Shown here piece by piece: positions 9,012-40,900 of a stretch of 51,136 nt of DNA. Below the pieces are notes generated by a model. That model did not search any database and was not told the DNA's origin. It worked only from the letters and a program-made list of their open reading frames with translations. Source of the stretch: Lachnospiraceae bacterium. GTDB taxonomy: Bacteria; Bacillota; Clostridia; Oscillospirales; Acutalibacteraceae. Position 1 is the stretch's first letter. Every line of letters starts with the position of its first letter. The stretch lies in assembly GCA_963597005.1 (NCBI GenBank), contig CAVBOS010000001.1, forward strand, positions 1-51,136, read 5' to 3'. The position numbers and the translations under genes were made by a program.

Positions 9012-11150
9012 ATGAAAAAGAGAACATCTAAAATTGTTTCAATTGTAATGGCTCTGGCACTCGTAGTGTCGTGCTTTGCACAGAATGCCTTTGCGGCTTC
9101 CTCGATTGACGCAGACGGATTCGAATTTGACGGCTGGACCGAAAGCTTCAGCTTCGACGTGAACGATGTCACAGCTGGCGAAACCGTTGAAATCGGTGCA
9201 AGCCAAGAGGATATCTGCTTTGTGGCAGACTGCACCTCTGTCGACGGGCTCACCTACGGTGATGAGTTTACTGTTTCAAACAGCGGCTCAGGCCTTGAAA
9301 TCACAATCAACAAGAGCGGTGACTTCACCGTTACCACGCTCGCAAGAATGTCTAACCATGACCTTGACGGCTCAACCACAGGCAGAATTTCAATTACATG
9401 CGGCAGTGCAAGCACCGAGGTCTACGCTTCAGGTACATTGCCGGACGGCTCCTATCCCGGAGTTTCAACCACGGTTGCGTTTGAAACAGGCGTAGCAGGC
9501 GCAGTTGTCACTGTAGGCGGAGCAGAATACACAGCGGACTCAGACGGAACAGCTTATGCTACCGGTCTTGATACATACACAGTTTACACAGCTACATGCT
9601 CGGCAGACGGCTATGACTTCAGTGACCAGTCCTATTCATTCTACATCGGCGCATCCGATATGTCTTCTGCGGGCAGTGCAGACAGAATAGCAACAGGTGA
9701 CTATCAGACCTATACCTTCACAGGAACACCGATAGAAGAGGACAAGGGTAGCGTTACAGTTGCTATAAACGGTGGTGACGGTGACGAAACCGTTACAGTA
9801 GCTAATGCAGACGGCGACAGCGCAGTTCTTTCAAACGGCGACACAGAGGAGCTTCCCGTAGGCGAATACACAGCTACAATTACTTTTGACGAAGATAAAT
9901 ACACAGTCGACAGCAGCTCAGTATCTGTTTCAGTCACAAAGAACAATACATCAACAGTAGAATTTACACTCACGGAAAACGAGCCTGATCCAGTTTACGG
10001 AACAGCAGTTATCACAGTTACAGATACAGACGGAAGCCCGATTAGCGGAGCTACCGTCACACTCGACGACGGTCAGTCAGCTACAACGGGTGCTGACGGT
10101 ACGGCAGAATTCCAGATAGAGGTTGGAGTAACCTACTCCGCTTCCATCACTGTTCCGACAGGCTACACATACAGCGGCGGCGATATCGGCGGAATCAAGG
10201 TTGACAGCGAGGGCGATTCATTTAACGGAAACGCTACCGCAGAAAAGGACGCAGAGCCTACTGCAGAGCCGACAACGGCACCTACAACCGAGCCGACAAC
10301 AAAGCCGACAGAAAAGCCTACTGCAGAGCCGACAGAGAAACCTACCGAAAAGCCCACAGAGAAGCCGACAGAGAAGCCGACAGCTACTCCGAAGCCGACT
10401 AAGGCTCCCACAGAAAAGCCGACAGCTACTCCGAAGCCCACAAAGGCTCCTACAGAGAAGCCGACTGCAACACCTAAGCCGACAGAAGCTCCCACAGCAA
10501 CTCCGGCACCTAAGAGAACAATCAATGTTAAGGTCGTATGGAACGACGATAACAATAAGGCAAACGCAAGACCAAGCTCACTTGAGGTTCAGCTTAACGC
10601 AAACGGTTCAAAGTATGCAAGCGAGAATCTCTCCGACAGCAACGGCTGGGCAAAGACATGGTCGGATCTCGACAGAGGCTCTTCATGGAGCATTTCGGTA
10701 AACAACATACCGAACGGCTACTACAAGCAGACCTCACTCGACAGCTCAACGCTCACATTCACAATCACGATGAATTACAGCGGAAGCAGTGCAACTCCGA
10801 CACCCGGCCCGACAGCAGTTGTAACGCCAAACCCGACGGCAACTCCGACCCCGAACAACAATAACAATAACAATAACAGCACGCCAACACCGAGAGCTTC
10901 CGCTTCTCCGAAAGCATCAGCATCGGCTAAGCCTACCTTTAAGCCCGCTCCGTCCACAAGTCCGTCCACAAGCCCAAGCGGCAACCTGACGAACTCACCG
11001 AGCCCATCACCAAGCAGCTCGAGAAACACGGATAAGGGCGGAAGCAATATCTTCCTTTGGATCTGCATCGTTCTTATCATTCTTTCCGCAGGCGGTATCG
11101 TAACGGTTATCACAATCATCGTTATCAACCAGAGAAAGCACAGACACTGA
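9012..11150 (+). CDS. cell-surface protein: signal peptide, Ig-like/Cna-B-type domains, Thr/Pro linker, C-terminal TM anchor
   Basis: 712 aa. Signal peptide [22 protein letters not shown]. The Cna-B-like segment [29 protein letters not shown] follows the TP-rich linker. It also has a poly-Asn run and a terminal TM helix with a basic tail (NQRKHRH). No LPXTG motif. Confidence 0.75.
10251..10513 (+). repeat. in-frame Thr/Pro/Lys/Glu tandem repeats inside the surface protein
   Basis: PTEK(P) 12-nt units, then three copies of a 42-nt unit encoding [14 protein letters not shown]. Explains the long alternative-frame ORFs on both strands. Confidence 0.8.
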
Positions 11151-16607: not shown

Positions 16608-19544
16608 TTGAAAGGGATGCAAAGAATGAGAAAAAAGAAAAAGAATCGAGATGAAGATCTCGATTATGCGGTAGCGGATCAGAATTACGGCTGGTCTTTG
16701 CCGGAGGTTGACGGCGAGGACGCTCCTTTAGATAACAATGAAGAATATGTTTACGAGGGCGTCGACGCAAACGGCGAAGAGGAATATGATGTTCCTGCCG
16801 ATATGGAAAGGGACATTTCAGATACGGTCGAAAATGATTCAGCGGCACAATATGACGACTATTATTCCGATGATGAGGATAATGGTGTTGTAGAATATGA
16901 GAAGCCGAAGAAAAAGAAAAGAGGTCTTTTCGGTCTTTTCGGCAAAAAGAAGCAGGATGACGATTTTGACGAATCCGAGGACACATACTACGGCGTTCAG
17001 GTGAAGCCGCTTGACGAATTCAAAATGGATTACGATCCGTCAAGCCACAATCCCATGGAGGATACCTTTGCCAAGCTTTTTGATACAAGCGTGACCGCTC
17101 TCGACGATGAGATTGAGGATAATTTCAATCAGATTCAGCGTGAGAGAAGAAGAAGAGTTGCCGAGGCTGTTGAGAATGCGGGCGTAGACATGAACGATGT
17201 TGCCGATGAGTTCGGCGTCATTGCGCCTCCGCCTGTCACATCGTACACGGGCGAGATTGACCTCAAGGAAAATGACGGGGACGACGAGTTTGCCAAGGCA
17301 ATCCGTGATTCGGCAAAGTCGAGAACCATGGAAATCAAGCTCAACGTTCTTAACGATACGGTAGAGCTTCAGAAAATCGTCAATGTTCCGAAGGTTGACT
17401 CCGACAGCATTGACGAGATAGAGCAGCAGGCAAAAATCTACAATACTGCCGAGATTGATATCCCCGAGACACTCACGGACGAGTCTTCCGATTCCTATGA
17501 TGAGGAGAATGCTGCGGACGATAACTATGAAAATGACGAGGCATTCGAGAGTGAAGAAAATCCCGAGGATGTCCAGCCGATTGAAGCAGACGAGGATACT
17601 CCGAATTACTATCAGGAGTTCCCGACTATTGAGGATGTCACAAGATACCGTGATTTGACTCTTCCCGTCCATAACATTGACCTCGATGTCATTCAAAGTG
17701 CAATTCTCACTGAGGCTGATGACTACGATGAGGAGACTGGCGAATATCGCGGAAGAAAGGTAAACACCAAGAAGAGCCGCTTTAAGCTTTTCGAGGGCAA
17801 GGAGGAGCAGGCTGACGAGTCGGGCGAATCAATAGACGATTACACCTCCCCCGAGGATGCACCGTCTGTTCTTGCAGATCTCAAAGCCAATATATCTAAG
17901 CTTGGCATGAGAGCTGCCGCAACGGGACTTGCGACGATAGTTCTCTTCTTCCTCGGACTTATTCTCGAGGGACGTGACAACACCGTAGCTTCGGGAAGCT
18001 ATGTGGTTATTTCTCTCATATTGACAGGTGTGGCGGTTGCACTTTGCTACAAGAATATACTTGACGGACTCAAGGGAATCATTCGCTTTGAGCCTACAAG
18101 CGACAGTGCGATGGCGGTAGCCGTTTTGGCTGTTGTCATTCAGCATATAGGAGCGTTGTTCTCGCTCGACGGCGTGTCAAACGGAAACATTCACCTTTAC
18201 GGTGCACTTGCAGTCGGTGCGATTTTCCTCAATTCCGTCGGTAAGCTTTCAATGGTCAGAAGAATTTACTCCAACTTCAGATTTATTACCGCACGTGAAG
18301 ACAAATACACCGTCAGAATTTATGACGATTACAATAATTCTTTAAAGCTTGCGGGCGACAGTGCTTCGGGCACTCCGAAGATTGTTCACCAGAGAAAAGC
18401 GGGCTTCCTCAAGAGATTCTTGGAGCTCAGCTATGAGCCTGACCCATCTGAGGAGGCAGGAAGAGCAATTGCTCCTTACGGACTTATTTTATCGCTCGTT
18501 TCCACAATTGCCGCAATCCTTCTCAACACAAGCATAAGCTCCGGTATATCGACATTTGCCGCATCGACTCTTGCTTTCTGCGTTATGACCAATATGATAG
18601 GTCTCAATTTCCCAATGAGCAAGTTCTCGAAGAAGGTAAAGCGTGCGGGCGCTATGGTTTCGGGATACCGTGCACTTGAGAGTGTTTCCGATGTCACCAA
18701 TGTTATGCTTTCCGATACTGAGCTTTTTCCCAAGGGAACAGTCACAATCGGCGGAATCAAGGCTTTTGATAACGAGGGTCTTGAGGATGCAGTCACTGCC
18801 GCAACGGCAATGATTAACGAAGTCGGCGGAACTCTTGCGGACGTTTTCGGACAGGTAATCACCGAGAGCGGTGTGGAGCTTCCTAAGGTTGAGGCTCTTG
18901 TACTCGAGGGAGACAACGGCGTAAGCGCAAGGGTAAACGGCAAGCACATAATTCTTGGCAACAGAGATATACTCATATCCCACAACATCACACCGCCTGA
19001 AAGAGAGGACATCATGAAGTACCTCGAGGGCGGCAAGAGACCGCTGTTCATTGCGGTTGACGGCAAGCTTAAGGCGATGATAGTTGTAGGCTACAAGGCT
19101 GACAGAAGAAGAAAGGTTGAGCTCAGCAAGCTTAAGGAGAACGAAATCGGTCTTATCGTTTATTCGACCGACCCGAACATCACTGTCGGTTTTGTCTCCA
19201 AGCTTTTCGACATGGGCGAGTCAAGAGTGAATATTGTTCACGGCGAACTTGCCGCTGAGTGCCTTAAGGATGAGAAGAACGAGGTTGCAAGAGCCGATGC
19301 GACCATCGCAACAAAGGGCAGACCGGAATCTCTTCTCAGCGTTATCAATGCCTGCGTGAAGCAGAAGAAGCTCACAAAGGTGATAACAACAGCTCAGATT
19401 ATCGGCGCTGTTCTCGGATTCATCATCGTAACATTCGTCAGCCTCGGTTCTGCGGGTGCGGGAATTTCCGCAGTTTCGCTGTTCCTCTTCGAGGCTTTGT
19501 GGACGGTTATCGTTATGATAATCCCCAAGGTTATGGAAAAGTAA
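16608..19544 (+). CDS. large membrane protein: about 440-aa acidic low-complexity N-terminus plus a degenerate P1B-type-ATPase-like core lacking DKTGT
   Basis: 978 aa. The TM block and C-terminal half follow the heavy-metal P-type ATPase layout (NGVSARVNGKHIILGNRDIL, FIAVDGKLKAMIVVGYKADRRRK). SDTELF replaces DKTGTL, HGELAAEC replaces GDGINDAP, and there is no TGES. Confidence 0.55.
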   Translation: MKGMQRMRKKKKNRDEDLDYAVADQNYGWSLPEVDGEDAPLDNNEEYVYEGVDANGEEEYDVPADMERDISDTVENDSAAQYDDYYSDDEDNGVVEYEKPKKKKRGLFGLFGKKKQDDDFDESEDTYYGVQVKPLDEFKMDYDPSSHNPMEDTFAKLFDTSVTALDDEIEDNFNQIQRERRRRVAEAVENAGVDMNDVADEFGVIAPPPVTSYTGEIDLKENDGDDEFAKAIRDSAKSRTMEIKLNVLNDTVELQKIVNVPKVDSDSIDEIEQQAKIYNTAEIDIPETLTDESSDSYDEENAADDNYENDEAFESEENPEDVQPIEADEDTPNYYQEFPTIEDVTRYRDLTLPVHNIDLDVIQSAILTEADDYDEETGEYRGRKVNTKKSRFKLFEGKEEQADESGESIDDYTSPEDAPSVLADLKANISKLGMRAAATGLATIVLFFLGLILEGRDNTVASGSYVVISLILTGVAVALCYKNILDGLKGIIRFEPTSDSAMAVAVLAVVIQHIGALFSLDGVSNGNIHLYGALAVGAIFLNSVGKLSMVRRIYSNFRFITAREDKYTVRIYDDYNNSLKLAGDSASGTPKIVHQRKAGFLKRFLELSYEPDPSEEAGRAIAPYGLILSLVSTIAAILLNTSISSGISTFAASTLAFCVMTNMIGLNFPMSKFSKKVKRAGAMVSGYRALESVSDVTNVMLSDTELFPKGTVTIGGIKAFDNEGLEDAVTAATAMINEVGGTLADVFGQVITESGVELPKVEALVLEGDNGVSARVNGKHIILGNRDILISHNITPPEREDIMKYLEGGKRPLFIAVDGKLKAMIVVGYKADRRRKVELSKLKENEIGLIVYSTDPNITVGFVSKLFDMGESRVNIVHGELAAECLKDEKNEVARADATIATKGRPESLLSVINACVKQKKLTKVITTAQIIGAVLGFIIVTFVSLGSAGAGISAVSLFLFEALWTVIVMIIPKVMEK

Positions 19545-21215: not shown

Positions 21216-21239
21216 TTCAAGTGCAATAAAAATTAAGAA

Positions 21240-21467
21240 AACGCTGTGACGATGAGAGTAACTAAGTCCGAAGGCTTCAGAGAGCTGCCGTTTGGTGCAA
21301 GGCAGTGCGAGTAAGGCTCAGCGAAGATCACATCCGAGCGGCAGCGCAGAAAAGAACGTAAGCGCTGACGGAACCTCACCGTTAGAGGAGGCACATATCA
21401 AGAGTATGATGAAGACCGGGTGGTTAAGCGATTATAAGTCGTCCTGAGTTAGGACGGCTTTTTTTAT
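21240..21467 (+). promoter_or_regulatory. T-box riboswitch leader, Ile specifier
   Basis: GA/K-turn GATGAGAGTA, AGAGAG box and distal-loop GGTGCAA. Specifier GAAG-AUC-A at 21327-21329. T-box core GGGTGGTTAAGCG at 21418-21430. Terminator AAGTCGTCCT / AGGACGGCTT plus T7. Confidence 0.8.
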
Positions 21468-24710: not shown

Positions 24711-24750
24711 TTTAAATAAAAACAAAATAAAAATATTTTTACTCAGTCAT

Positions 24751-24790
24751 TTGGGCTTTTCGAATGGCTGAGTTTTTTTTACGAAAATTA
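24751..24790 (+). terminator. rho-independent terminator after ileS
   Basis: Stem ACTCAGTCATT / AATGGCTGAGT (one G-U pair) followed by T8. Confidence 0.75.
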
Positions 24791-24983
24791 AAAATTTATA
24801 AAGATTTTGTGATGAAAATGAAACAGAAATGCAAAATCCCACAATGAAAAGACAGTTTTAGCCCAAAGTCCACAAAGCAAGGACAAAAGTCTATCTCTCG
24901 GTGACGAAAACTGAATCAAAGTATCGTTCATAAATATTTATTTAAGAATATAAAGAAATTCAAAAATAAATTTATAAAAACTC

Positions 24984-25012
24984 TTGACAAATTTATAAAG
25001 CGTTGCTATAAT
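24984..25012 (+). promoter_or_regulatory. consensus sigma-70 promoter of the YVN-peptide array
   Basis: TTGACA (24984-24989), 17-nt spacer, TATAAT (25007-25012). The spacer contains AAATTTATAAAG. Confidence 0.7.
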
Positions 25013-25093
25013 AACATCGTAAGGTGAAGAGAAAAAGAAAACACCTAAGACAAAAAAACCGAAACAAATATTACGAAAGGCGAGGCAATCAAT

Positions 25094-25264
25094 ATGTATT
25101 CAAGAAAAGCAGAAACAATCTACACAACAAATCTTAAGAACAGCAAGAAGCTGTCAAGAAAAGCAGAAATAGTAATGAATGACACAGAGCTTGACATTCC
25201 GGCATATGGATGCTTCGGCAGACAGTATGTGAATATAAACGGCGTAACAATGCCGACTATGTAA
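25094..25264 (+). CDS. YVN-peptide B1, 56 aa: MYSRKAETIYTTNLKNSKKLSRKAEIVMNDTELDIPAYGCFGRQYVNINGVTMPTM
   Basis: GAGG SD 9 nt upstream. Shares TIYTTNLKN and DIPA with B2/B3, and YVN-x-x-G with all array members. Confidence 0.6.
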   Translation: MYSRKAETIYTTNLKNSKKLSRKAEIVMNDTELDIPAYGCFGRQYVNINGVTMPTM

Positions 25265-25300
25265 GGAAATCAAGAGAGAGTTAAGAAGGAAAAAACGATT

Positions 25301-25465
25301 ATGATTAAGCCAATGACAATATATACAACAAACCTTAAGAACGCTAAGACAAAGAAGAGAGCCGTAAGAAGTGCGATTGAGAATGACATTCCGGCACCTG
25401 AGGCAAGAAACAATAACCTCGTATATGTAAACGTAGGCGGAATGGTAACAGCAATCAACGCTTAA
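25301..25465 (+). CDS. YVN-peptide B2, 54 aa: MIKPMTIYTTNLKNAKTKKRAVRSAIENDIPAPEARNNNLVYVNVGGMVTAINA
   Basis: AAGGA SD. Its peptide is identical to B3, with two synonymous differences (CTT/CTC, GCT/GCA). Confidence 0.7.
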   Translation: MIKPMTIYTTNLKNAKTKKRAVRSAIENDIPAPEARNNNLVYVNVGGMVTAINA

Positions 25466-25520
25466 GAGAAAGAAAACAAAAAGAAAGTAAGAAGAAAGAT
25501 AACGAAAGGAAAAAACGATT

Positions 25521-25685
25521 ATGATTAAGCCAATGACAATATATACAACAAACCTCAAGAACGCAAAGACAAAGAAGAGAGCCGTAAGAAGTGCGATTGA
25601 GAATGACATTCCGGCACCTGAGGCAAGAAACAATAACCTCGTATATGTAAACGTAGGCGGAATGGTAACAGCAATCAACGCTTAA
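25521..25685 (+). CDS. YVN-peptide B3, 54 aa, identical peptide to B2
   Basis: As for B2. Only synonymous differences. Confidence 0.7.
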   Translation: MIKPMTIYTTNLKNAKTKKRAVRSAIENDIPAPEARNNNLVYVNVGGMVTAINA

Positions 25686-25733
25686 GAGAAAGAATAAACA
25701 AAAGAAAAAAGAAGTTAAGAGAAGAAAAATATT

Positions 25734-25862
25734 ATGATTAACAATAAGAACACTAAGAACGCAAAGAACATTAAGACAACTGAAAAGAAGCGCCACCTCA
25801 TGTATGTAAATGTAGGCGACGGTATCGTAACGCTTTCACCTGACAGCAAGTTCTACAAGTAA
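25734..25862 (+). CDS. YVN-peptide B4, 42 aa: MINNKNTKNAKNIKTTEKKRHLMYVNVGDGIVTLSPDSKFYK
   Basis: Purine-rich weak SD. MINNKNTKN N-terminus shared with B5, B6 and B8. HLMYVNVG-GIVTL shared with B9. Confidence 0.6.
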   Translation: MINNKNTKNAKNIKTTEKKRHLMYVNVGDGIVTLSPDSKFYK

Positions 25863-25906
25863 TCGAAAGCGAAAAGAAGAAAGAAGTTAAGAAGAAGGAA
25901 ATAATT

Positions 25907-26065
25907 ATGATTAACAACAAGAACACTAAGAATACAAACGACACAAAGGCAAAGAGAAGAAGCATCGTTGAGATTTTCGGCGATATGGCTCCTCATTCCC
26001 CAAGCGGACACGAGAGAATGGCTTACGTAAACGCAGCCGGTGTTGTTACATACATTGTCGGTTAA
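25907..26065 (+). CDS. YVN-peptide B5, 52 aa: MINNKNTKNTNDTKAKRRSIVEIFGDMAPHSPSGHERMAYVNAAGVVTYIVG
   Basis: AAGGA SD 8 nt upstream. Member of the PHS-x-x-G...RM-x-YVNAGG-x-x-TYIVG subfamily, with many synonymous differences from B6-B8 in the core. Confidence 0.7.
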   Translation: MINNKNTKNTNDTKAKRRSIVEIFGDMAPHSPSGHERMAYVNAAGVVTYIVG

Positions 26066-26102
26066 TTTGAACCGATTTGACTGAAAGGAAAAGGCGAACA
26101 TT

Positions 26103-26261
26103 ATGATTAACAATAAGAATACAAATAACAATAAGCACGAGAACGCAAAGAAGAGAAGCTTTTTGGATATGATCGGCGAGACTCTTCCGCATTCCGCAAC
26201 AGGCGACCAGAGAATGCTCTATGTCAACGCTGGCGGCGGAATCACATACATCGTCGGCTGA
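26103..26261 (+). CDS. YVN-peptide B6, 52 aa: MINNKNTNNNKHENAKKRSFLDMIGETLPHSATGDQRMLYVNAGGGITYIVG
   Basis: AAGG SD. Same subfamily. Confidence 0.7.
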   Translation: MINNKNTNNNKHENAKKRSFLDMIGETLPHSATGDQRMLYVNAGGGITYIVG

Positions 26262-26282
26262 TAAAATTGTCTGAGGTAATCT

Positions 26283-26432
26283 ATGGCGGGCAATAAAGGC
26301 ACAGATACACAGAAGACCAAAAGAAGAGGCTTTTTAAAGCTGATAGAACTGAATATCCCACATTCTGCGACAGGCAATGTAAGAATGCCGTATGTCAATG
26401 CAGGAGGATACATAACGTACATAGTCAGATGA
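26283..26432 (+). CDS. YVN-peptide B7, 49 aa: MAGNKGTDTQKTKRRGFLKLIELNIPHSATGNVRMPYVNAGGYITYIVR
   Basis: GAGG SD 7 nt upstream. Same subfamily with a divergent N-terminus. Confidence 0.7.
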   Translation: MAGNKGTDTQKTKRRGFLKLIELNIPHSATGNVRMPYVNAGGYITYIVR

Positions 26433-26462
26433 TTTGATGTACACAAGGAAAAGGCGAATATT

Positions 26463-26618
26463 ATGATTAACAACAAGAATACAAATAATAAGAACACAAA
26501 CACAAAGAAGAGAAGCTTTTTAGAGCTTGTCGGCGAGACACTCCCTCATTCCCCAAGCGGAAATCAGAGAATGGCTTATGTTAATGCCGGAGGATATATC
26601 ACATATATTGTCGGCTAA
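26463..26618 (+). CDS. YVN-peptide B8, 51 aa: MINNKNTNNKNTNTKKRSFLELVGETLPHSPSGNQRMAYVNAGGYITYIVG
   Basis: AAGGAAAAGG SD region. Same subfamily. Confidence 0.7.
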   Translation: MINNKNTNNKNTNTKKRSFLELVGETLPHSPSGNQRMAYVNAGGYITYIVG

Positions 26619-26641
26619 AACAGCGAAAGAAGGACAATATT

Positions 26642-26788
26642 ATGAAAAAGTTTACAGAGTTTCTTATGAATTCTTCTAATACAAAGAAGGCAGCCACAAT
26701 CACTGCCGTGAAAGAAGACGGTTCTAAGAGAAAGCACCATCTTATGTATGTAAATGTCGGCGGCGGAATAGTTACGCTTTACGACTGA
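26642..26788 (+). CDS. YVN-peptide B9, 48 aa: MKKFTEFLMNSSNTKKAATITAVKEDGSKRKHHLMYVNVGGGIVTLYD
   Basis: GAAGGA SD 8 nt upstream. HLMYVNVGGGIVTL shared with B4. Confidence 0.65.
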   Translation: MKKFTEFLMNSSNTKKAATITAVKEDGSKRKHHLMYVNVGGGIVTLYD

Positions 26789-26841
26789 TACATTTAATCA
26801 AGATCACATCTTTATCACACACACCTCATATACAATGCAAG

Positions 26842-26871
26842 AAATTCCGGCTTTTTGAGTCGGAATTTTTT
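26842..26871 (+). terminator. rho-independent terminator closing the YVN array
   Basis: Stem AAATTCCG / CGGAATTT followed by TTTTTTG. Confidence 0.7.
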
Positions 26872-26939
26872 GTTTTGCCCGAAAGAGAAAAATGTAGTAA
26901 TATATATTTATCAAAAGTAAAGACCGAAAGAAACGGAGA

Positions 26940-27707
26940 TTGAATTTGGAAAACACAGAAAATCTTATAGATGCGGTAGTGATACTCGGAAAAAAGGTGG
27001 ATACCGACAGGGCGAAGAAAATTGCAAAGGATTTTGCGGCACCGCTTGTTGACGATATTCCGAAAGACAGGAATTCAAGATATTTTATAATCGATAAAAC
27101 AGGAATTTCCTTTGTCAGCGGCGGAAAAACGCTTAAGGGAGATTTCAGCTTAATGCTCAAGAGAGTGAGCGGTGGTCATTTGGCTCATGAGATAATTCTC
27201 AAGGCGGCAAAGCCCGAAAAGGACGAGAGGGCAGTTGATTTTACGGCGGGGCTCGGCGAGGACTCGTTTATATTGGCGGCGGCAGGTTACCGAGTGGAGA
27301 TGTACGAGCACAATCCGATAACGGCGGTTTTACTGAAAGATGCGCTTATCCGTGCGAAAAAAGACCCAAAGCTCAAAGAAATTGCCGAAAGAATGACTCT
27401 TTCCCAAGGAGACAGCAAGGAGCTTATAAGCAAAATTGGATATTTACCCGACCTTATCTATCTTGACCCCATGTTCCCCGAGAAGAAAAAGAACGCAGAG
27501 ACCAAAAACAAAATGCAGGTTCTCCACACGATAGAAAAGCCGTGTGAGGACGAAGATGAGCTTATGCAGGCGGCATTTTCCGCCAAGCCGAAGAAGATAG
27601 TCGTCAAAAGACCTCCCGAGAGCAGTTTTCTGGCGGGAATCGAGCCGACATATTCTGTTGAGAGAAAAGCCGTTCGCTACGATGTTTATGCGGTAAGAGC
27701 AGAGTGA
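26940..27707 (+). CDS. class I SAM-dependent methyltransferase, RsmJ (DUF548)-like
   Basis: 255 aa with a TTG start. VDFTAGLGEDSFILAAAGYRVEMYEHNP and IYLDPMFPEKKK match the RsmJ-family SAM-binding and catalytic motifs. Confidence 0.65.
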   Translation: MNLENTENLIDAVVILGKKVDTDRAKKIAKDFAAPLVDDIPKDRNSRYFIIDKTGISFVSGGKTLKGDFSLMLKRVSGGHLAHEIILKAAKPEKDERAVDFTAGLGEDSFILAAAGYRVEMYEHNPITAVLLKDALIRAKKDPKLKEIAERMTLSQGDSKELISKIGYLPDLIYLDPMFPEKKKNAETKNKMQVLHTIEKPCEDEDELMQAAFSAKPKKIVVKRPPESSFLAGIEPTYSVERKAVRYDVYAVRAE

Positions 27708-33775: not shown

Positions 33776-35197
33776 ATGGTTTTTGCGGATCTGTTTTTTA
33801 TTTACTGCTTTTTGCCGGTGTGCATAATCTGCTACCTTTGTGCCAAAAAGCTCAAGGCAAAGAATATCGTTCTTTGCGTGTTTTCCGTGCTTTTTTATGC
33901 ATGGGGCGAGCCGACATGGGTTTTGCTACTCATATTCAGTTCGGCGTTTAACTGGTTCATCGGACTGCAAATAGGGAAGTATCGGGGCAAGGTTCTATCC
34001 AAATGGATAGTCACGTTCGGCGTTGTGGTCGATATTGCGTTGTTACTTGTCTTTAAGTACACAGGATTCTTTGTCGAGAATATCAATGCGCTTTTCAGAG
34101 CAAGCATTCCTGTTCCGAACATCACGCTTCCTATCGGTATTTCGTTCTTTACGTTCCAGGCTATCTCGTACATAGTCGATTGCTACTGGGATGCGGTCAA
34201 AGTGCAGAAGCATTACTATAAATTCTTGCTTTATCTCTCACTTTTCCCACAGCTTATCGCAGGTCCTATTGTCCGATACAGCGTTATTGAGGAGGAAATC
34301 GACCACAGAACGGTAAGCCCCAACGACCTCTGCGAGGGCTCAATGAGAGTTATTCAGGGACTTGCAAAGAAGGTTATCCTTGCAAACAACCTGAATTCCA
34401 TAGTTGACACATTCTTCGGCTCGGAGCTTGCAAGCGTCTCGGTCATCGGAACATGGTATACGGTTATAGTCTATTCGCTTTATGTTTACTTTGATTTCAG
34501 CGGATACAGTGATATTGCGATAGGACTCGGCAGAATGTTCGGCTTCCACTTTGACGAGAACTTCACTCATCCTTTTGCCTGCAAAACCATTGCCGAGTTC
34601 TGGCAGAGATGGCATATCTCGCTTGGCTCGTTCTTCAGAGATTATCTTCTCTATGTTCCGATTTTCGGCAAGCCCAGAAAATATCTCGGACTTTTCCTCG
34701 TTTGGTTCTGCACGGGTATGTGGCACGGCGCCGCTTGGAACTACATTCTTTGGGGTCTTTATTTTGGCGGCTGGATTTTCTTCGAGCAAAAGCTCGGAAA
34801 GAAGGTTCTCAAGAAGTGGCCGATTTGGTGGAAGCATATTTATTCCAAGCTGATTATCGTAATCGGTTTCGGTATCTTCAAGTTTGAGGATTTGAAGCAA
34901 TTAGGTCAGTTCTTCCTGAATATCACGGGAATCAACATGATAGTGAACAAGGCGGCTTTTTTCGATATGGTAACGCTTTCTAACATGAAGGATAATCTGT
35001 TCCTCGTGCTTGCCGCAATGATTATATCAATGCCCGTGCTTCCCAAGATTAAGAGCTTTGTTCTCGACAACAAGAACCCCACGGTTTATGCTGTCGGCAG
35101 ATTTAGCGCACTGGCAGGCTGTCTTGTACTGCTCGTGGTTGTAAGCGTACTTCTTGTCGATACAACAAACAATGTTTTCCTCTACTTCAGGTTCTAA
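33776..35197 (+). CDS. MBOAT family O-acyltransferase (DltB/AlgI-like)
   Basis: 473 aa, polytopic. Catalytic-His signature FWQRWHISLGSFFRDYLY. Confidence 0.85.
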   Translation: MVFADLFFIYCFLPVCIICYLCAKKLKAKNIVLCVFSVLFYAWGEPTWVLLLIFSSAFNWFIGLQIGKYRGKVLSKWIVTFGVVVDIALLLVFKYTGFFVENINALFRASIPVPNITLPIGISFFTFQAISYIVDCYWDAVKVQKHYYKFLLYLSLFPQLIAGPIVRYSVIEEEIDHRTVSPNDLCEGSMRVIQGLAKKVILANNLNSIVDTFFGSELASVSVIGTWYTVIVYSLYVYFDFSGYSDIAIGLGRMFGFHFDENFTHPFACKTIAEFWQRWHISLGSFFRDYLLYVPIFGKPRKYLGLFLVWFCTGMWHGAAWNYILWGLYFGGWIFFEQKLGKKVLKKWPIWWKHIYSKLIIVIGFGIFKFEDLKQLGQFFLNITGINMIVNKAAFFDMVTLSNMKDNLFLVLAAMIISMPVLPKIKSFVLDNKNPTVYAVGRFSALAGCLVLLVVVSVLLVDTTNNVFLYFRF

Positions 35198-35214
35198 ATA
35201 AAAGGTAATTTTAA

Positions 35215-37122
35215 ATGGACGATAAATTTAACAACAATGCAGGCGGTGAGGATTTGAAAATCGAGGTGAACGACCTCTTCTCGAATTTCACTTCTCAAGA
35301 CGGTGAAAATAAACCCGAAACACCGCCCGTAGATTTTGAGAGTATTAATTTTGATGCTCTCGACAAAAAAGAAGATAACACGGTCAAGGAAGAGGTTTAT
35401 GCCAATACAACCGATAAGGTTGTGGCTTCCTCCGATGATGATTACAGCGACTTTGACTTTGGTGATTTCAATATAGACGATATGCCGGACTACGACAGTC
35501 CGTCCGATTCGGCAGCTTCAAACAGCGGTTCCGGTGCGTCGGACTACGATGATTTTGATTTCGGAGATTTCGAGCTTGACGACGCTCCGAAAAAGCCCAA
35601 AAAGTCACCAAGCGAGAAGAAGAGGAAGCTTTTGGAAATGAGAGTTTCTCTTCTCTCCATGATGATACTCATTCCTTTCTTCTGTTTGGGAATGATATAC
35701 ATGCTGTTTTTCCCGAAGTCCAAGGTTTCGCAGATTGAGAAGAGAACGCTTGCTTCGTTTCCGAGCTTTTCAATCTCAAATTGGTTCTCTGGCAGCTTCA
35801 CGAGCGGAATAAACGAGTGGTTCACCGATACCGTTCCGAACCGTGACGCACTGAAAAATGCGGGCTATGACATAAAGGCTGTTTTCGGCCTTCCGTCAAG
35901 TGACGACGATGTCATTTTCGTCAATAATGCAACCAAGAAAACGGGCGACACCACAACCGAGACAAGTACGGCAGACGAAACAAGCTCGAGCGACGATTCT
36001 GCTTCGGCGGATACATCTTCGACTGAGACAAGCACGACAGAGACCTCGACCGCACAGACGACAGGCGGAACGGAAATTTCCGATGCAACTCTTGACGGCT
36101 CTGCGGGCAGAAGAAGTGTTCACATCAAGATAGGAACAATCGCCGATACCGAGGAGGATCAGACCGACTTCACAAAGCAGGACGACGAGTTCGACTGGTC
36201 GGACGGCCTTATCATCGTTCAGCAGGAAGGTCACTACAGAGTTCTCGGACTTTTCGGAAACGGTGACGATACCTCTTATGTCACAGCTTTAAACGAGCTC
36301 AGAAAAGAGCTTGATTCAAGTATAAATATCTGGAATATGCCGTGTCCGCTTGCAAGTGAATTCTACACCCCGGCGAACGCACTCGAGTACACCGCAAGCC
36401 AGAGCGACCGCTTCGATGAGATTGCGGGAGAGCTCGACAGCGGAATCACATCGCTTAATGTTTGCTCGGTTCTTCAGAAGCACACCGAGGAGGATATTTA
36501 CCTCAGAACAGACCACCACTGGTCACAGCTCGGTGCTTACTACGCAGCGAGAACCTTTGCCGAGGCGGCAGGCGTTGCCTTTGCGGATAAGGATACCTTC
36601 GAGAGCGGCGTGAATGAGGGCTATGTCGGTTCTTATTACGGCTACACTCAGGATTACCGTGTTCTCAATGACCCCGAGGACTTCCCGTGGTGGAAGCAGA
36701 AGGAAGATGTCACAACTTACTACTACGACAGAAACTTCGAGTATCAGTATACGGGAAATCTCTACATGGAGACAGATACCGCAAACTCCTACATTATGTA
36801 TATGGGCGGTGATGACCAGATTGTAAAGGTCACTGGTACCGCAAACAACGGCAGAAAGCTCATCATCGTCAAGGACTCCTACGGCAATGCGGAAATTCCG
36901 TGGTATGTCGCTTCGTTCGATGAAATCTATGTTGTTGACTTAAGATACTTCAACCTGAACTTCGTAGACTTTGTAGAGTTCACGGGTGCAACCGATGTTC
37001 TCTTCAGTATGTGTTCCTACTCCGTTGTCGGCGGAAATGCCGATAACCTCACGACAATGCTCACTCAGAACAAGGGCGCAACCATTGTTGACGAGGCTTT
37101 GACAAGCACAGACACAGATTAA
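35215..37122 (+). CDS. DHHW family protein (AlgX/DltD-like extracytoplasmic acyl-transfer partner) with an acidic cytoplasmic N-tail
   Basis: 635 aa. An acidic N-terminus carries two DFDFGDF motifs. It also has a TM helix and a Thr/Ser linker. The catalytic region contains the eponymous LRTDHHWSQLGAYYAA. Confidence 0.75.
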   Translation: MDDKFNNNAGGEDLKIEVNDLFSNFTSQDGENKPETPPVDFESINFDALDKKEDNTVKEEVYANTTDKVVASSDDDYSDFDFGDFNIDDMPDYDSPSDSAASNSGSGASDYDDFDFGDFELDDAPKKPKKSPSEKKRKLLEMRVSLLSMMILIPFFCLGMIYMLFFPKSKVSQIEKRTLASFPSFSISNWFSGSFTSGINEWFTDTVPNRDALKNAGYDIKAVFGLPSSDDDVIFVNNATKKTGDTTTETSTADETSSSDDSASADTSSTETSTTETSTAQTTGGTEISDATLDGSAGRRSVHIKIGTIADTEEDQTDFTKQDDEFDWSDGLIIVQQEGHYRVLGLFGNGDDTSYVTALNELRKELDSSINIWNMPCPLASEFYTPANALEYTASQSDRFDEIAGELDSGITSLNVCSVLQKHTEEDIYLRTDHHWSQLGAYYAARTFAEAAGVAFADKDTFESGVNEGYVGSYYGYTQDYRVLNDPEDFPWWKQKEDVTTYYYDRNFEYQYTGNLYMETDTANSYIMYMGGDDQIVKVTGTANNGRKLIIVKDSYGNAEIPWYVASFDEIYVVDLRYFNLNFVDFVEFTGATDVLFSMCSYSVVGGNADNLTTMLTQNKGATIVDEALTSTDTD

Positions 37123-37127
37123 GGTGA

Positions 37128-38924
37128 ATGGTGAATAACATGAAAGAACTTGAATATCCGTTTGATTCCGGTTATATAATCAACAAGAAGAAGTCTATAA
37201 AAAAGGCTCTTCTTGCTGACGGAAGCAAGAGAATAAAGAAAAAAATCGCCGTATTCGGCGGTTCCACAACGGCAAATATTGTAAGCATTTTGGAGCTCTT
37301 TTTGCTAAATTACGGTATCGAGCCTGAGTTCTACGAGTCGGAATATGCCCAGTATTTTCAGGACGCTATGTTCCCCGATGATACTCTGCTTAAATTCGAG
37401 CCGGACATAGTATTCGTGCACACCTCTTACAGGAATATCACGAATTTCCCCGCAATGGCAGATTCTGCGGAAGAGGTTGACGCTAAATTTAACACGGAGT
37501 GTGAGAAGTTCCGTGCCATGTGGCAGAGCATTAAAGAAAAATTCCACTGCCCGATAATTCAGAACAACTTCGAGATGCCGCTTTATCGACTTCTCGGAAA
37601 CCGTGACGCTTGGGATATTCACGGCAGAGTGAATTTCATCACAAGACTTAACGATTATTTCTATTCCTACGCAAGAGAGAACGAGAGCTTCTACATCAAC
37701 GATCTCAACTTCATCTCTGCCGACTACGGTCTCAAGGAGTGGTCTAATCCGCTTTTCTGGAATATGTATAAGTACGCTATGTGTTTTGAGGGCATTCCGT
37801 CATTCTCGTTCAGCGTTGCCAATATCATAAAGTCGATTTTCGGCAAGAACAAGAAGGCACTCGCACTTGACCTTGACAACACCCTTTGGGGCGGCGTTGT
37901 CGGTGATGACGGCGTAGACGGAATCGAAATCGGACAGGAAACGGGAGTCAGCCAGTCTTACTATGAGTTCCAGAGCTATGTTAAGGAGCTCAAGCAGCTC
38001 GGCATTGTTCTCACGGTCTGCTCGAAGAACGATCACGAAAATGCCATTGTAGGACTTAATCACCCCGAGGGCGCACTAAAGCCCGATGATTTTGTTATCA
38101 TCAAGGCTAACTGGGAGAACAAGGACAGAAATATCGCTGAGACTGCGGCAGAGCTCAATATCGGTCAGGATGCGATAGTTTTCGCTGACGATAACCCAGC
38201 CGAGAGAGCAATTGTTTCCGCTCAGATAAGCGGCTGTGCCGTACCTGAGATGGATGGCGTCGAGAACTACATCAACACAATCGACCGTTCGGGATTTTTC
38301 GAGGTGACAAGCTTCACCGCCGATGACCTCAAGCGCGGCGATATGTACAAGAAGAATGTTCTCCGCAATCAGCAAATGGCTTCGTTCGGAGATTACGGCG
38401 AGTATCTTAAGAGCCTCGAGATGGTCGGCGAGATTGCCGATTTCAAGCCTGTTTATATCGCAAGAATAACCCAGCTCACAAATAAGTCGAACCAGTTCAA
38501 CGTGACAACCAAGAGATATACTCCGACAGAAATGGAAGAGGTTTTCGAGAGTGATGAGTATATCAGACTTTACGGAAAGCTTATCGATAAGTTTGGCGAT
38601 AACGGCGTTGTTTCCGTTGTAATCGGAAAGAAGGACGGAAAAAACCTCAATATGGATTTGTGGCTTATGTCGTGCCGTGTCCTCAAGCGTGATATGGAGC
38701 TTGCCATGCTCGATAAGCTTGTCGAAAAGGCAAAGGCTCAGGGCATCGAGAAGATCACGGGATATTATTATCCGACCGCCAAGAACAAGATGGTTAAAGA
38801 TCTTTACGGCACATTCGGATTTGATAAGGTAAGCGAGGACGAGGACGGAAATTCCGTCTGGACGCTCGATATCACAAATTACGAGAACAAAAATAAATAT
38901 ATTGAAGTAAAAGAAGAAATCTAA
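37128..38924 (+). CDS. FkbH-like HAD-IIIC family protein
   Basis: 598 aa. HAD-IIIC motif ALDLDNTLWGGVVGDDG, then CSKNDHENA and FADDNPAER. The start may instead be the ATG at 37140. Confidence 0.75.
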   Translation: MVNNMKELEYPFDSGYIINKKKSIKKALLADGSKRIKKKIAVFGGSTTANIVSILELFLLNYGIEPEFYESEYAQYFQDAMFPDDTLLKFEPDIVFVHTSYRNITNFPAMADSAEEVDAKFNTECEKFRAMWQSIKEKFHCPIIQNNFEMPLYRLLGNRDAWDIHGRVNFITRLNDYFYSYARENESFYINDLNFISADYGLKEWSNPLFWNMYKYAMCFEGIPSFSFSVANIIKSIFGKNKKALALDLDNTLWGGVVGDDGVDGIEIGQETGVSQSYYEFQSYVKELKQLGIVLTVCSKNDHENAIVGLNHPEGALKPDDFVIIKANWENKDRNIAETAAELNIGQDAIVFADDNPAERAIVSAQISGCAVPEMDGVENYINTIDRSGFFEVTSFTADDLKRGDMYKKNVLRNQQMASFGDYGEYLKSLEMVGEIADFKPVYIARITQLTNKSNQFNVTTKRYTPTEMEEVFESDEYIRLYGKLIDKFGDNGVVSVVIGKKDGKNLNMDLWLMSCRVLKRDMELAMLDKLVEKAKAQGIEKITGYYYPTAKNKMVKDLYGTFGFDKVSEDEDGNSVWTLDITNYENKNKYIEVKEEI

Positions 38925-38936
38925 CGGAGGATTACC

Positions 38937-39182
38937 ATGGACGCAAAGGTTCTTTTTACAAGATTAAACAGAGTTTTTCAGGATGTTTTTGATGATAACA
39001 GCATCAGAATCACTCCCAAGACAACAGCAAACGATATTGACGACTGGGATTCACTCGAGCATATCACACTCATCTCCGCTGTTGAGAGAGAGTTTGGCAT
39101 GAAGTTCAAAATGGGTGAGATTTCTTCCATGAAGAATGTCGGCGAAATGGCTCAGATTATCAATCACAGAGCAACAAAGTAA
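38937..39182 (+). CDS. acyl/peptidyl carrier protein
   Basis: 81 aa with GGAGGA SD. Phosphopantetheine-attachment context DIDDWDSLEHITLISAVE. Confidence 0.75.
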   Translation: MDAKVLFTRLNRVFQDVFDDNSIRITPKTTANDIDDWDSLEHITLISAVEREFGMKFKMGEISSMKNVGEMAQIINHRATK

Positions 39183-39196
39183 AAAACATAAAAATT

Positions 39197-39226
39197 AAGG
39201 GTGCCAAACCGGCACCCTTTTCTTTT
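39197..39226. terminator. bidirectional terminator between the carrier-protein gene and the convergent ligase gene
   Basis: Stem AAGGGTGCC / GGCACCCTT followed by TTTCTTTT. Confidence 0.7.
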
Positions 39227-39241
39227 GCGTATTTCAGATTG

Positions 39242-40900
39242 TCAGGTTCTTTTGAGCTCACCTGTTTTGAGGTCTTCCTCTGCAATGCGTCTGAGCTCTG
39301 CTCTTTTCTTCTTTCCCGTCGGAGTATATGGGAGAGAGTCAACGATTTTTATGTATCTCGGACGCTTGTAGGCGGATAAATCAGGATGAACATGGCAGAA
39401 AGCGGAAATATCCTCTGCGGTTACACTCGGGTCAGTGACTTTCACATAAGCCGCAACAGCCTGACCGCGAAGCTTATCCGACACACCGATTACTATGCAG
39501 TCATCCACCTTTTCGTGCTCAAGGATTGCGTTCTCGACCTGCGTGGGGTAGATGTTTTCGGCGGCACAAACTATCATATCGTCTTTTCTGCCCTTGATTG
39601 TTATGTAGCCGTTCTCGTCCCATACGCCCAAATCACCCGTGTACATCCAGCCGGAATAGAATTTCTTTTCTGCTTCCTCCGGAGCGTTATAGTAGGTGTA
39701 GGTTCCCTTTGCGGGACTCCAAATGATTATCTCGCCGAGAGCTTCACCGTCCTTCTCGACTGTCTCGGACGGTTCGGCTTTTCTGTCGTCATAGACCTTG
39801 ACAACTCTTGTTTCGTCATCAATGCAGCTGCCGCCGACCGTGCCGGCAAATTCAGGCAAGTCAAACGGTCTTAAGAAGCTGTTCCAGAAGGTCTCTGTTG
39901 TGCCGTAGCCGTTGAAAATTCTCGGAGTGAGAGTTTTCATGTACTCCTCGCAGGCGTGCTTTTCGAGCGGCGCACCCATGGTGACAAGTCCACGAAGCGA
40001 GCTTAAATCAAATCCGTGCTTTTTCTGCGCTCTTGCGAGCATCTCGAGGGTTGACGGCGCACCCATAAGATAGGTGATGCCAAGCTCCTCAGTCCATTTG
40101 AGGCACATTTTAGGCTGGAAATTTCTCAGAACTGTGACAGCCGCACCGACATAAAGGCTGGGGCCGGGGCCACCGCTGTGCGCTCCTCCTCGGTGGAACC
40201 ACGGGGTCATGTTCATGGTGATGTCGTTAGGCTCAAGCGGATACTGCATTATGACATCGTGAGCGGAGAGAACCTCGTTGATATCGTTTATCGGACAGCT
40301 TTTCGGAAGTGCTGTTGTTCCCGATGTGCAAAGTCTCAAGACCTCGTCATAAATATGAGAAACAAAGTCTTTTTTGGGATTTTCTTCCGATATGTTTTTA
40401 ACATAGTCATCATATGAGAAATGTCCTGTCGGCATGTCTAAGCCCTTGAGGTTATCTACCATGATGAGTACCTTCGGAGGATTTTTTGCGAGAGAAACCG
40501 CCTCGACTATCATGTCTCTGTGCTCTGCGGAATAGAGGAAAGCCTTTGGCTTGTTGTGGTCGATCAGCTTTGCCATTTCTCCCGGAGCAAGGTTAAAGTT
40601 GGCTGGGTTGAGAATAGCTCCGATTTTTCTCGGGCCGATGTAAGAGAATACAAATTCGGGGCAATTGAGCATTGCCGACATGACAACATCGTTCTTGCCG
40701 ACGCCGTCTGCTTTCAGTGCGTTCGCAAGGCGGTTAGCCTCCTTGTTCAGCTCATTATAAGTCCATTTTCTTTCGGTCAGCGGATCGAGAACGGCGGTTC
40801 TTTTTGGGTATCTTGCGACGTTTCGCATAAAGCCGTTCAGCCATGTGTATTCATGCTCGAATGTTTCTATGAACATCTTATCGTCATAGGTTCTTGCCAT
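39242..40900 (-). CDS. AMP-dependent synthetase/ligase (class I adenylate-forming enzyme)
   Basis: 552 aa. A3 motif LCTSGTTALPKSC, A5-like YGTTE, A7 YTGDLG, A8 GRKDDMI and A10 PTGKKKR. Confidence 0.85.
   Translation of the reverse strand: MARTYDDKMFIETFEHEYTWLNGFMRNVARYPKRTAVLDPLTERKWTYNELNKEANRLANALKADGVGKNDVVMSAMLNCPEFVFSYIGPRKIGAILNPANFNLAPGEMAKLIDHNKPKAFLYSAEHRDMIVEAVSLAKNPPKVLIMVDNLKGLDMPTGHFSYDDYVKNISEENPKKDFVSHIYDEVLRLCTSGTTALPKSCPINDINEVLSAHDVIMQYPLEPNDITMNMTPWFHRGGAHSGGPGPSLYVGAAVTVLRNFQPKMCLKWTEELGITYLMGAPSTLEMLARAQKKHGFDLSSLRGLVTMGAPLEKHACEEYMKTLTPRIFNGYGTTETFWNSFLRPFDLPEFAGTVGGSCIDDETRVVKVYDDRKAEPSETVEKDGEALGEIIIWSPAKGTYTYYNAPEEAEKKFYSGWMYTGDLGVWDENGYITIKGRKDDMIVCAAENIYPTQVENAILEHEKVDDCIVIGVSDKLRGQAVAAYVKVTDPSVTAEDISAFCHVHPDLSAYKRPRYIKIVDSLPYTPTGKKKRAELRRIAEEDLKTGELKRT

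Follow-up and report, generated by a model that had tools for sequence, protein, structure and literature searches.

A tandem array of nine small-protein genes in an uncultured clostridial genome is a lineage-specific expansion of a previously undescribed family

We analyzed a 51,136-nt stretch of contig CAVBOS010000001.1 from a Lachnospiraceae bacterium (assembly GCA_963597005.1; hereafter the window), in which nine small open reading frames (ORFs), B1 to B9, lie in tandem on the + strand at positions 25094-26788 and encode peptides of 42-56 aa each. An earlier reading, made from the sequence alone, had headlined these peptides as resembling precursors of RiPPs (peptides made by ribosomes and then modified post-translationally). 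Our results show that the array represents the tandem expansion, specific to this lineage, of a small-protein family that had not been described before, and it is very likely that we are dealing with a real family expansion and not with a self-contained RiPP cluster. The explanation we favor, to which we assign a probability of roughly one in three (about 0.35), is that the products are unmodified cytoplasmic small proteins that would fold upon binding to a partner. As fallbacks, the sequence-only reading had offered intracellular regulators or self-assembling small proteins; the former is the one preferred here.

The array is bounded by the ileS terminator (24741-24773) and the gene of an RsmJ-like methyltransferase (26940-27707), so that the two neighbors named earlier do flank it. 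A sigma-70 promoter at 24984-25012 (+ strand), composed of TTGACA, a 17-nt spacer, and TGc-TATAAT, matches the consensus at 12 of 12 positions and carries an extended -10 element (TG); it was the sole strong match of a promoter scan across the region. An intrinsic terminator at 26833-26877 (+ strand), starting 45 nt past the B9 stop codon, closes the operon with a dG of -24 kcal/mol (z = -5.8; 0 of 200 shuffles folded equally well), and no terminator-like site was detected on the coding strand within the array. One promoter and one terminator thus enclose the nine ORFs, as had been proposed, and the locus is shown to be a single operon running from a promoter with a candidate operator through nine cistrons to one terminator. 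The first ~30 nt (GTAAGGTGAAGAGAAAAAG...CACCT) of the 5' untranslated region (UTR; 25019-25093, + strand) are kept across lineages in alignments; hairpin prediction in the 5' UTR was weak (5 bp, z about 0), and its conservation is one of sequence rather than of demonstrated structure. The ORFs had been described as led by Shine-Dalgarno (SD) sequences, and this applies to eight of them, with a purine-rich SD-like stretch 5-12 nt 5' of the ATG, while in B4 the stretch is weak. The 5' coding regions are purine-rich and A-rich, and the purine fraction of the array is 0.64, compared with 0.53 for the whole window; the long, spurious ORFs on the opposite strand are due to this purine richness.

The first gene, B1 (25094-25264; 56 aa, RKAETIYT ... 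YVNINGVTMPTM), is the founding-type member that opens every array. It is followed by B2 (25301-25465; 54 aa, MTIYTTNLKN ... YVNVGGMVTAINA), which bridges B1 and B4-B9, and by B3 (25521-25685; 54 aa), a recent B2 duplicate encoding an identical peptide. The shortest product is that of B4 (25734-25862; 42 aa, with the tail HLMYVNVGDGIVTLSPDSKFYK and orthologs P0023 and P0025). Four genes encode peptides with a PHS segment, namely, B5 (25907-26065; 52 aa, PHS ... RMAYVNAAGVVTYIVG), B6 (26103-26261; 52 aa, PHS ... RMLYVNAGGGITYIVG), B7 (26283-26432; 49 aa, PHS ... RMPYVNAGGYITYIVR), and B8 (26463-26618; 51 aa, PHS ... RMAYVNAGGYITYIVG), and B9 (26642-26788; 48 aa, HHLMYVNVGGGIVTLYD) ends the series; all nine lie on the + strand.

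When the array was compared with its orthologs in five other lineages, the pooled ratio of nonsynonymous to synonymous polymorphism (pN/pS) was 0.10-0.35, and this low value argues that the nine ORFs are genuine coding genes under purifying selection. The corresponding ratios of substitution rates (dN/dS) for individual orthologs were 0.06-0.22 for B1, 0.04-0.19 for B2, 0.08-0.48 for B4, and 0.02-0.41 for B9. Between the paralogs B5, B6, and B8, dN/dS was 0.12-0.20 with dS about 1, while dS was saturated in paralog pairs involving B7. The evidence for coding that the sequence-only reading had drawn from synonymous codon changes is borne out by these values, and its count for the identical B2 and B3 peptides is exact: their genes differ by two nucleotides, both synonymous, and stem from a 209-nt direct repeat whose copies are 96% identical and 220 nt apart. 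The order of the subfamilies (B1, B2, ..., B9) is preserved between species.

Upstream of the array, an 11-nt motif, AAATTTATAAA, with the core palindrome TTTATAAA, is present in three copies on the + strand: a distal one at 24792-24802, ~190 nt upstream of the -35 element; a second at 24968-24978, just upstream of the -35 element, which may be an operator or an UP-element-like sequence; and a third at 24989-24999, which fills the promoter spacer. These are the only exact matches in the 51 kb, against 0.17 expected. In six lineages with diverged flanks, no changes are seen in the promoter, the AAATTTATAAA motifs, or the initial ~30 nt of the 5' UTR. The composite TTGACA-A[AG]TTTATAAA occurs once per locus, always preceding family genes, and is also found in the distant loci L043 and L044 and, with a 1-nt insertion, in L033 and L034; the promoter-operator module TTGACA-AATTTATAAA hence accompanies the family in distant taxa. 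Because promoter modules and upstream motifs accompany its genes in this way, the family appears to be tightly and specifically regulated. The promoter of the array probably has a very high strength, which would be kept in check by a factor binding to the TTTATAAA palindrome.

Most of the copies linked to AraC-type regulator genes (see below) carry a different motif, AAAyAAATAAAr-(t/a)rCAAT, ~18 nt upstream of the -10 element. It was seen in eight copies (L019-L042), including some with no adjacent AraC gene, and a palindrome, TTCTTATAAGAA, is present in several 5' regions of the L019-L042 family genes. These two elements are candidate sites for the AraC ortholog and a repressor.

To place the array among known proteins, the peptides were scanned against Pfam, NCBIfam, PHROGs, and PADLOC, with nothing above noise, and PDB profile searches with them gave no match; the Pfam field is empty in the precomputed annotation of 81 of 81 family clusters, a literature search for four of the peptide motifs gave no paper, and keyword searching yielded nothing relevant. 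The remark in the sequence-only reading that no matching family could be recognized holds in all five databases, and the family itself is new: no described family or system accommodates it. An Rfam scan of the region matched only the ileS T-box, which rules out the array as a catalogued RNA element. A profile search of 5.8 billion clusters returned 25 clusters of 42-69 aa, all unnamed, and an exhaustive HMMER scan of 1.84 billion representatives returned 7 clusters with the same proteins, all from this clade. On the basis of these searches, the array with the YVN-GG motif is restricted to one narrow clade of uncultured Clostridia, and the L13 protein falls into a cluster with that of a metagenome-assembled genome labeled "Clostridia bacterium".

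Within this clade, the array is present in every member found, but its gene content is variable and the copy number ranges from 3 to 9. There are nine genes in the window and in L015, eight in L017, and seven in L010-L014, where B1 has YVH and the B7 type has YVS; YIN is also among the YVN variants of sister arrays. The L007 array consists of three genes and includes YAN and MYAKLCGG. The L001-L006 arrays contain five genes and a degenerate B9-like remnant, their B1 has LVN, and at about 10220-10840, in place of B4-B8, stand three paralogs ending in ...SPYGYYLSTRKYxEE (in L001 at 10226-10387, 10463-10627, and 10678-10839, followed by the remnant). These paralogs have an N/K-rich N terminus, MNKLNNKNN..KKAARQAKR, that resembles the array, while the C terminus is Tyr-rich and different.

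A genome scan and a second profile search revealed 58 clusters of 61- to 73-aa relatives, mostly from metagenome-assembled genomes of Lachnospiraceae, with the consensus MGRKAESIYTA.KKN...SFEE.[IM]RRNA.SKACYVYINGISMPVLSA; they occur in Lachnospiraceae and other gut Clostridia at 1-3 copies each. The Lachnospiraceae profile detected B1 with 33 bits (P = 4e-12), a profile of B4-B9 built without B1 and B2 detected B2 with 38 bits (P = 8e-14), and B1 and B2 have TIYTTNLKN in common. Because B4-B9 and the Lachnospiraceae set matched only weakly when their profiles were compared directly, the family link is transitive and runs through B1 and B2 as bridges. By these profile comparisons, the array and the 61- to 73-aa relatives are shown to belong together, with the whole forming what we regard as one superfamily of small (42-73 aa), basic proteins. 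Multiple copies are also found outside the clade, with three in L019, three in L037, and a tandem trio in the human-gut contig L043.

The proteins share a three-part architecture. The N-terminal part is polar and basic, and proteins of the B1 and B2 types have the motif RKAE[ST]IYT / TIYTTNLKN there; the middle contains a short acidic segment, E-x-x-[IL]-P or SFEE, and then a basic linker; and the C terminus is a beta-hairpin with the pattern Y-[VA]-x-[IVA]-[NG]-G-x-[IV]-x-x-[IP], or, among the features that B1 and B2 share with the 61- to 73-aa relatives, Y-[VA]-x-[IV]-[NG]-G-x-x-x-P. Among 97 unique family members, 87 were aligned at the hairpin by the scan. Position 1 is Tyr in 87 of 87; the second position is occupied by V in 76 members and by A in 9, and the third by Y in 49, by N in 31, and by S, T, H, or A in the remaining 7. 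The Y-V-N triplet, which leads into a turn rich in Gly and a tail of beta-branched residues, is invariant across the nine array peptides, as had been noted, but this invariance does not extend to the family. Since position 3 varies across the aligned family, YVN is best viewed as a local form of the hairpin pattern Y-[VA]-x-[IVA]-[NG]-G.

In L047-L049, which keep the gene order of the window, positions 1-1450 contain more B2-like paralogs, ~4-5 kb beyond what corresponds to the left end of the window. In these paralogs (MIKAMSIFSTNMKNAK...RLVSFGNMLTPVTI), Leu-x-Ser replaces Tyr-Val-Asn. The cluster also has unrelated 20- to 33-aa ORFs and a hydrophobic 33-mer, and it adjoins TelA/XpaC-like genes.

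All nine array peptides have a pI of 9.3-10.4, with zero Trp and a single Cys among them. None has a hydrophobic N terminus or signal peptide; over the first 20 residues, the grand average of hydropathy (GRAVY) ranges from -0.4 to -2.1, in agreement with the earlier description of hydrophilic N termini, and over the whole peptides it ranges from -0.3 to -0.9. The AlphaFold2 model of B1, based on an alignment of 45 sequences, contains only the C-terminal hairpin (strands 44-48 and 51-55; predicted local distance difference test [pLDDT] about 75) and is disordered elsewhere (pLDDT 59 for the model). That of B8 (23 sequences) has only a short helix at 19-24 and is otherwise mostly disordered (pLDDT 54); neither model shows an amphipathic helix or a helical bundle. 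N-G or G-G is the turn type expected in a tight beta-turn, and, in light of the models, the conserved N-G/G-G at the turn is more in line with a structural role in the hairpin than with a site of cleavage or cross-linking. The nine paralogs display four hairpin types, with VTMPTM, MVTAINA, GIVTL, and YITYIVG, respectively.

We next consider the gene context, for which 30 long ORFs of the 51-kb window were scanned with Pfam. The scanned ORFs are housekeeping genes, transporters, or without a match (4 of 30). They include OGG, RlmB, a YczE-like membrane protein, ileS, the RsmJ-like methyltransferase, an M23 peptidase, AzlCD, diaminopimelate (DAP) dehydrogenase, a Dlt-like MBOAT/DHHW set, holB, and L13. 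No radical SAM, YcaO, ATP-grasp, or lanthipeptide enzyme, C39-ABC exporter, or AraC gene is among these 30, so the statement of the sequence-only reading that no maturase lies nearby stands. A maturase, a RiPP recognition element (RRE) protein, a RiPP peptidase, and a peptide exporter were likewise absent from about 20 homolog contexts belonging to at least four distinct groups; the neighborhood analysis that had been suggested to find a co-occurring radical SAM, ATP-grasp, YcaO, or peptidase gene turned up no RiPP enzyme.

The neighbors that do recur beside the Lachnospiraceae homologs are an orphan AraC-type (AraC/YesN-like) regulator and MATE exporters. The regulators are orthologous, with 49-69% identity over the full length, and lie within 7.3 kb of a family gene in 7 of about 13 informative contexts; they are directly adjacent in L019, L020, L024, L027, and L041, and divergent by gene calls in the first four. 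The MATE genes belong to three subfamilies that are 20-29% identical to one another. Family genes stand on both sides of MATE genes once in L019 and twice in L037, and in L039 an ortholog of one L037 MATE gene lies between an intact and a frameshifted family copy. Regulator, peptide gene, and MATE gene occur together in L019, where the distance from the stop codon of the family gene to the start codon of the MATE gene is 1 nt, while the two are set apart by a terminator and a promoter-like sequence in L037 and L039. Other neighbors of the relatives encode an ABC-F protein, an AadA_C protein, an MFS transporter, Hsp20, ClpS/ClpA, an integrase, and, once, in L021, an Rce1-like protease.

In L007, the outer flanks of the array differ from those in the window, with an esterase upstream and a YesN-type response regulator past the methyltransferase, and the pairing of array and methyltransferase is retained. 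This pairing is weak evidence of linkage, given the terminator and promoter-like site between them. The RsmJ-like protein was set aside as a methylase of the peptides: its gene is widespread and of the housekeeping type, follows a terminator, and has a promoter-like site of its own, and we treat its position as synteny. The YesN-type gene of L007 (8878-9355) is cut by the contig end. The AraC partner of Lachnospiraceae resembles a YesN-type regulator without the receiver domain; YesN-type regulators are very common, and the L007 neighbor may be a coincidence for this reason.

According to the explanation we favor, the array proteins would be produced in large amounts and without post-translational tailoring, remain in the cytoplasm, and be disordered until the hairpin docks on a partner by strand addition; in B1 and B2, the N-terminal strand might dock as well. 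The strong promoter (12/12, TG), SD-like sequences, and purine-rich coding starts are consistent with such production, and no export or tailoring signature is apparent (no hydrophobic N terminus, one Cys, no Trp). Because the recurrent neighbors of the relatives are the AraC-type regulator and MATE exporters, the family members are most likely modulators or effectors of an AraC-controlled efflux or stress response, with the nine paralogs in four hairpin types possibly supplying dosage and several partner specificities. The closest systems, in concept only, are small-protein modulators such as ANR/Aar on the AraC-family protein AggR, MntS on MntP, AcrZ on AcrB, and MciZ on FtsZ. Like these, the proteins are shorter than 75 aa, would act by binding a larger partner, and are linked as a family to AraC-type regulators and transporters, and MciZ provides an example of disorder-to-order behavior; unlike them, they have no similarity in sequence or predicted fold to any of these modulators.

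Several observations weigh against this explanation. The strongest is the ninefold tandem amplification with member turnover, which is more typical of secreted, antagonistic, conflict-related, or signaling peptides; it is reflected in a copy number of 3-9 and in the new PYGYYLS-type C termini of one sister species, and we know of no such ninefold amplification among small-protein modulators. A conserved N-terminal motif together with a conserved C-terminal segment would also be expected of a RiPP leader and core. Neither an AraC ortholog nor a MATE gene adjoins the window array, whose sole conserved neighbor (with L007) is the RsmJ-like methyltransferase, with the intervening terminator and promoter-like site described above. 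Finally, the AlphaFold2 models of B1 and B8 are of low confidence, and folding on binding is what we infer.

Among the alternatives, that the peptides are leaderless signals is unlikely, yet it accounts for part of the data. They would be exported, possibly via the MATE proteins whose genes flank theirs in relatives, perhaps cut after N-G/G-G, and sensed by the AraC-type regulator, the released species being hydrophobic C-terminal peptides of 6-8 residues (YITYIVG, MVTAINA, GIVTLYD, and ISMPVLSA) and the nine genes encoding several signal variants. The co-occurrence of regulator, peptide gene, and MATE gene in L019, with 1 nt between stop and start, the divergent adjacency of the AraC ortholog in several genomes, and the multiple gene copies whose C termini are diversified into four types all suit such a system, and the short C-terminal peptides, being hydrophobic and beta-branched, are similar to SHP or enterococcal pheromones. 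In this respect, the Lachnospiraceae arrangement of a small gene divergent from a transcription factor, with a hydrophobic C-terminal tail, recalls the Rgg/SHP, ComR/XIP, and RRNPP cassettes. In those cassettes, however, a TPR/Rgg receptor stands beside a precursor that has a Sec signal or is short and hydrophobic, whereas the regulator of the relatives is AraC/YesN-like and the precursors are long, hydrophilic, and devoid of a signal peptide. Conservation spans the full length instead of the C-terminal tail alone, and the C-terminal segment is near-invariant in Lachnospiraceae whose regulators are only 49-69% identical, with no pherotype divergence. Moreover, MATE transporters are not, to our knowledge, exporters of peptides, the window array has no adjacent regulator or exporter, and no linked protease was found apart from the Rce1-like neighbor in L021.

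A more elaborate version, somewhat less probable still, is a new kind of three-part signaling cassette with leaderless, hydrophilic precursors, MATE export, and an orphan AraC/YesN-like receptor in the cytoplasm, of which the array would be a constitutively primed, multisignal form; alternatively, the peptides might gate the MATE pumps and the AraC activator.

That the peptides are RiPP precursors whose maturase is encoded elsewhere, e.g., a radical SAM cyclophane synthase acting on Y-x-x with the N-terminal motif as leader, is about as improbable as that cassette. Triceptides are defined by an aromatic-X-X three-residue cyclophane and by a co-encoded radical SAM/SPASM enzyme (PMC11499958). 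The array shares with RiPP/triceptide precursor arrays the short tandem precursor-like genes, the aromatic-X-X triad, and the hydrophilic N-terminal part. A remote maturase would be compatible with the Tyr found in 87 of 87 aligned members, the conservation of both the N-terminal motif and the C-terminal segment, the several precursor copies, and the L001 paralogs that keep the N/K-rich N terminus and swap the C terminus to the Tyr-rich PYGYYLS; when paralogs of this type were searched for outside the L001 species, none was found and no maturase context was gained. In contrast to a RiPP cluster, in which the precursor lies with at least one tailoring enzyme and usually a peptidase or exporter, the scanned window ORFs and about 20 homolog contexts contain no maturase, RRE protein, peptidase, or exporter, and the headline of the sequence-only reading is therefore not supported; precursors distant from their maturase in every genome would be unusual. 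The cyclophane that the same reading had suggested for an aromatic-x-Asn triplet is likewise not supported, even though its aromatic position is Tyr throughout the aligned members: about half of the family has Tyr where YVN has Asn, the X3 position may be N, Y, S, T, H, or A, Leu stands in for Tyr in one B1 ortholog, that of the L001 species, and there is no radical SAM gene in the contexts. Cys is not conserved, each peptide has a single motif with no repeats, and conservation runs the full length through the N-terminal motif, the acidic middle motif, and the hairpin, which differs from a pattern of conserved leader and variable core.

Still less likely are self-assembling or membrane-active peptides (amyloid-like, modulin-like, or leaderless bacteriocins), highly expressed and released with no signal peptide. 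The tandem operon of leaderless cationic peptides behind a very strong promoter would agree with this, as would the C-terminal G-G-x-[IV]-T-x-I-x segments, which seem to resemble steric-zipper-prone sequences, and the Hsp20 or ClpS/ClpA genes near some relatives. The phenol-soluble modulin (PSM) operons of staphylococci, psm-alpha and psm-beta, likewise comprise tandem, highly expressed small-peptide genes lacking signal peptides, with the exporter encoded elsewhere in the genome. PSMs, however, are hydrophobic, amphipathic alpha-helices spanning the peptide, whereas the array peptides are hydrophilic (GRAVY -0.3 to -0.9) and basic, have no Trp and no sequence similarity to PSMs, and, judging from composition and the AlphaFold2 models of B1 and B8, have the beta-hairpin as sole predicted element and no amphipathic helix. 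With leaderless multipeptide bacteriocins (aureocin A70 and enterocin L50), the array has in common a single operon for cationic peptides of 30-55 aa that are made without a leader; unlike them, its peptides have neither a hydrophobic helical core nor Trp, and no immunity gene or ABC exporter is adjacent or present among the scanned window ORFs. The relatives, in addition, are often single-copy beside a regulator.

Finally, regulatory leader or arrest peptides, which would act on downstream genes through their translation, in the manner of the leader peptide BmrB (162-nt bmrB gene) and the BmrCD multidrug pump under its control (PMC4191407), are highly improbable: family genes, like BmrB an ORF of ~50-70 codons, do lie directly upstream of same-strand MATE genes in L019, L037, and L039, which is partly reminiscent, and the conserved C-terminal I-N-G-x-x-x-P could conceivably act as an arrest motif, but a terminator intervenes in L037 and L039, where the MATE gene has its own promoter-like sequence, many relatives precede unrelated or convergent genes, and the array, which is not upstream of an exporter, consists of nine successive cistrons with a strong terminator 45 nt past the last stop and purifying selection on the protein along its whole length, instead of the single ORF with overlapping terminator and antiterminator of antibiotic-sensing leaders (BmrB and ErmCL). 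Amino acid-sensing attenuation through the Ile/Asn/Lys/Thr-rich N termini near ileS was rejected, as ileS has its own T-box and terminator; this composition is due to A-rich codons.

No part of bacterial genomes is less well annotated than the small proteins. The present family leaves a clear genomic footprint, with a perfect promoter and candidate operator, strong purifying selection, 1-9 copies per genome, and AraC/MATE linkage, yet it has no match in the family, structure, or defense databases searched. If its members do modulate efflux pumps or their regulator, or form a new class of signals, then drug and xenobiotic tolerance or communication in abundant gut Clostridia would have a further level of regulation. 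The case also cautions that a multicopy array of short peptides with a conserved motif is, by itself, no evidence for RiPPs.

Several other features of the window were observed. Upstream of ileS lies a T-box leader (21237-21449, + strand; Rfam RF00230, 95 bits), in keeping with an origin from Firmicutes/Clostridia. A gene at 16608-19544 (+ strand) encodes a 978-aa protein with no Pfam match and a weak NCBIfam match, over residues ~630-865, to the catalytic region of P-type ATPases; the synteny around it (RlmB, the 978-aa gene, the YczE-like membrane protein, a metallophosphoesterase, and ileS) is found in all array-bearing relatives except L007. The Dlt-like set at 33776-40900 comprises genes for an MBOAT protein (33776-35197), a DHHW/AlgX-like protein (35215-37122), and a protein with an FkbH N-terminal domain (37128-38924), together with an AMP-binding enzyme (39242-40900) on the strand opposite to the rest; it is probably a cell envelope acylation system unrelated to the array.

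A second group of tiny ORFs, unrelated to the YVN family, is located at 2290-5020 (+ strand), between MatE genes at 837-2195 (+ strand) and 5347-6783 (- strand). These SD-led ORFs of 21-40 aa include four related peptides of 29-40 aa starting at 2465, 2653, 2774, and 2876, of which the pair at 2653 and 2774 fits M.IL[KR][KR]A..IK.D...D.Y[IV].MYA; two identical 30-aa peptides, MRDNFGRKIMTSVKRAAKCCDDFYKDSLPI, at 3182 and 3389; three 25-aa peptides with the end MLAEIPEPYLCIR, at 3755, 4050, and 4345; two 21-aa peptides, MTSKT..QK..DFLIGSGI.H, at 4851 and 4951; and a hydrophobic 28-mer at 2375. The region is kept in related strains with variable content. A promoter-like unit, cTGTCC-N6-TTGTCC-N12-15-gaTATAAT, is repeated at ~2290-2325, 2565-2600, 3283-3318, 3972-4010, and 4267-4305, and has two TGTCC direct repeats 11 nt apart in place of a -35 element; the repeats look like a box for an OmpR/PhoB-type response regulator that would drive the tiny-ORF clusters.

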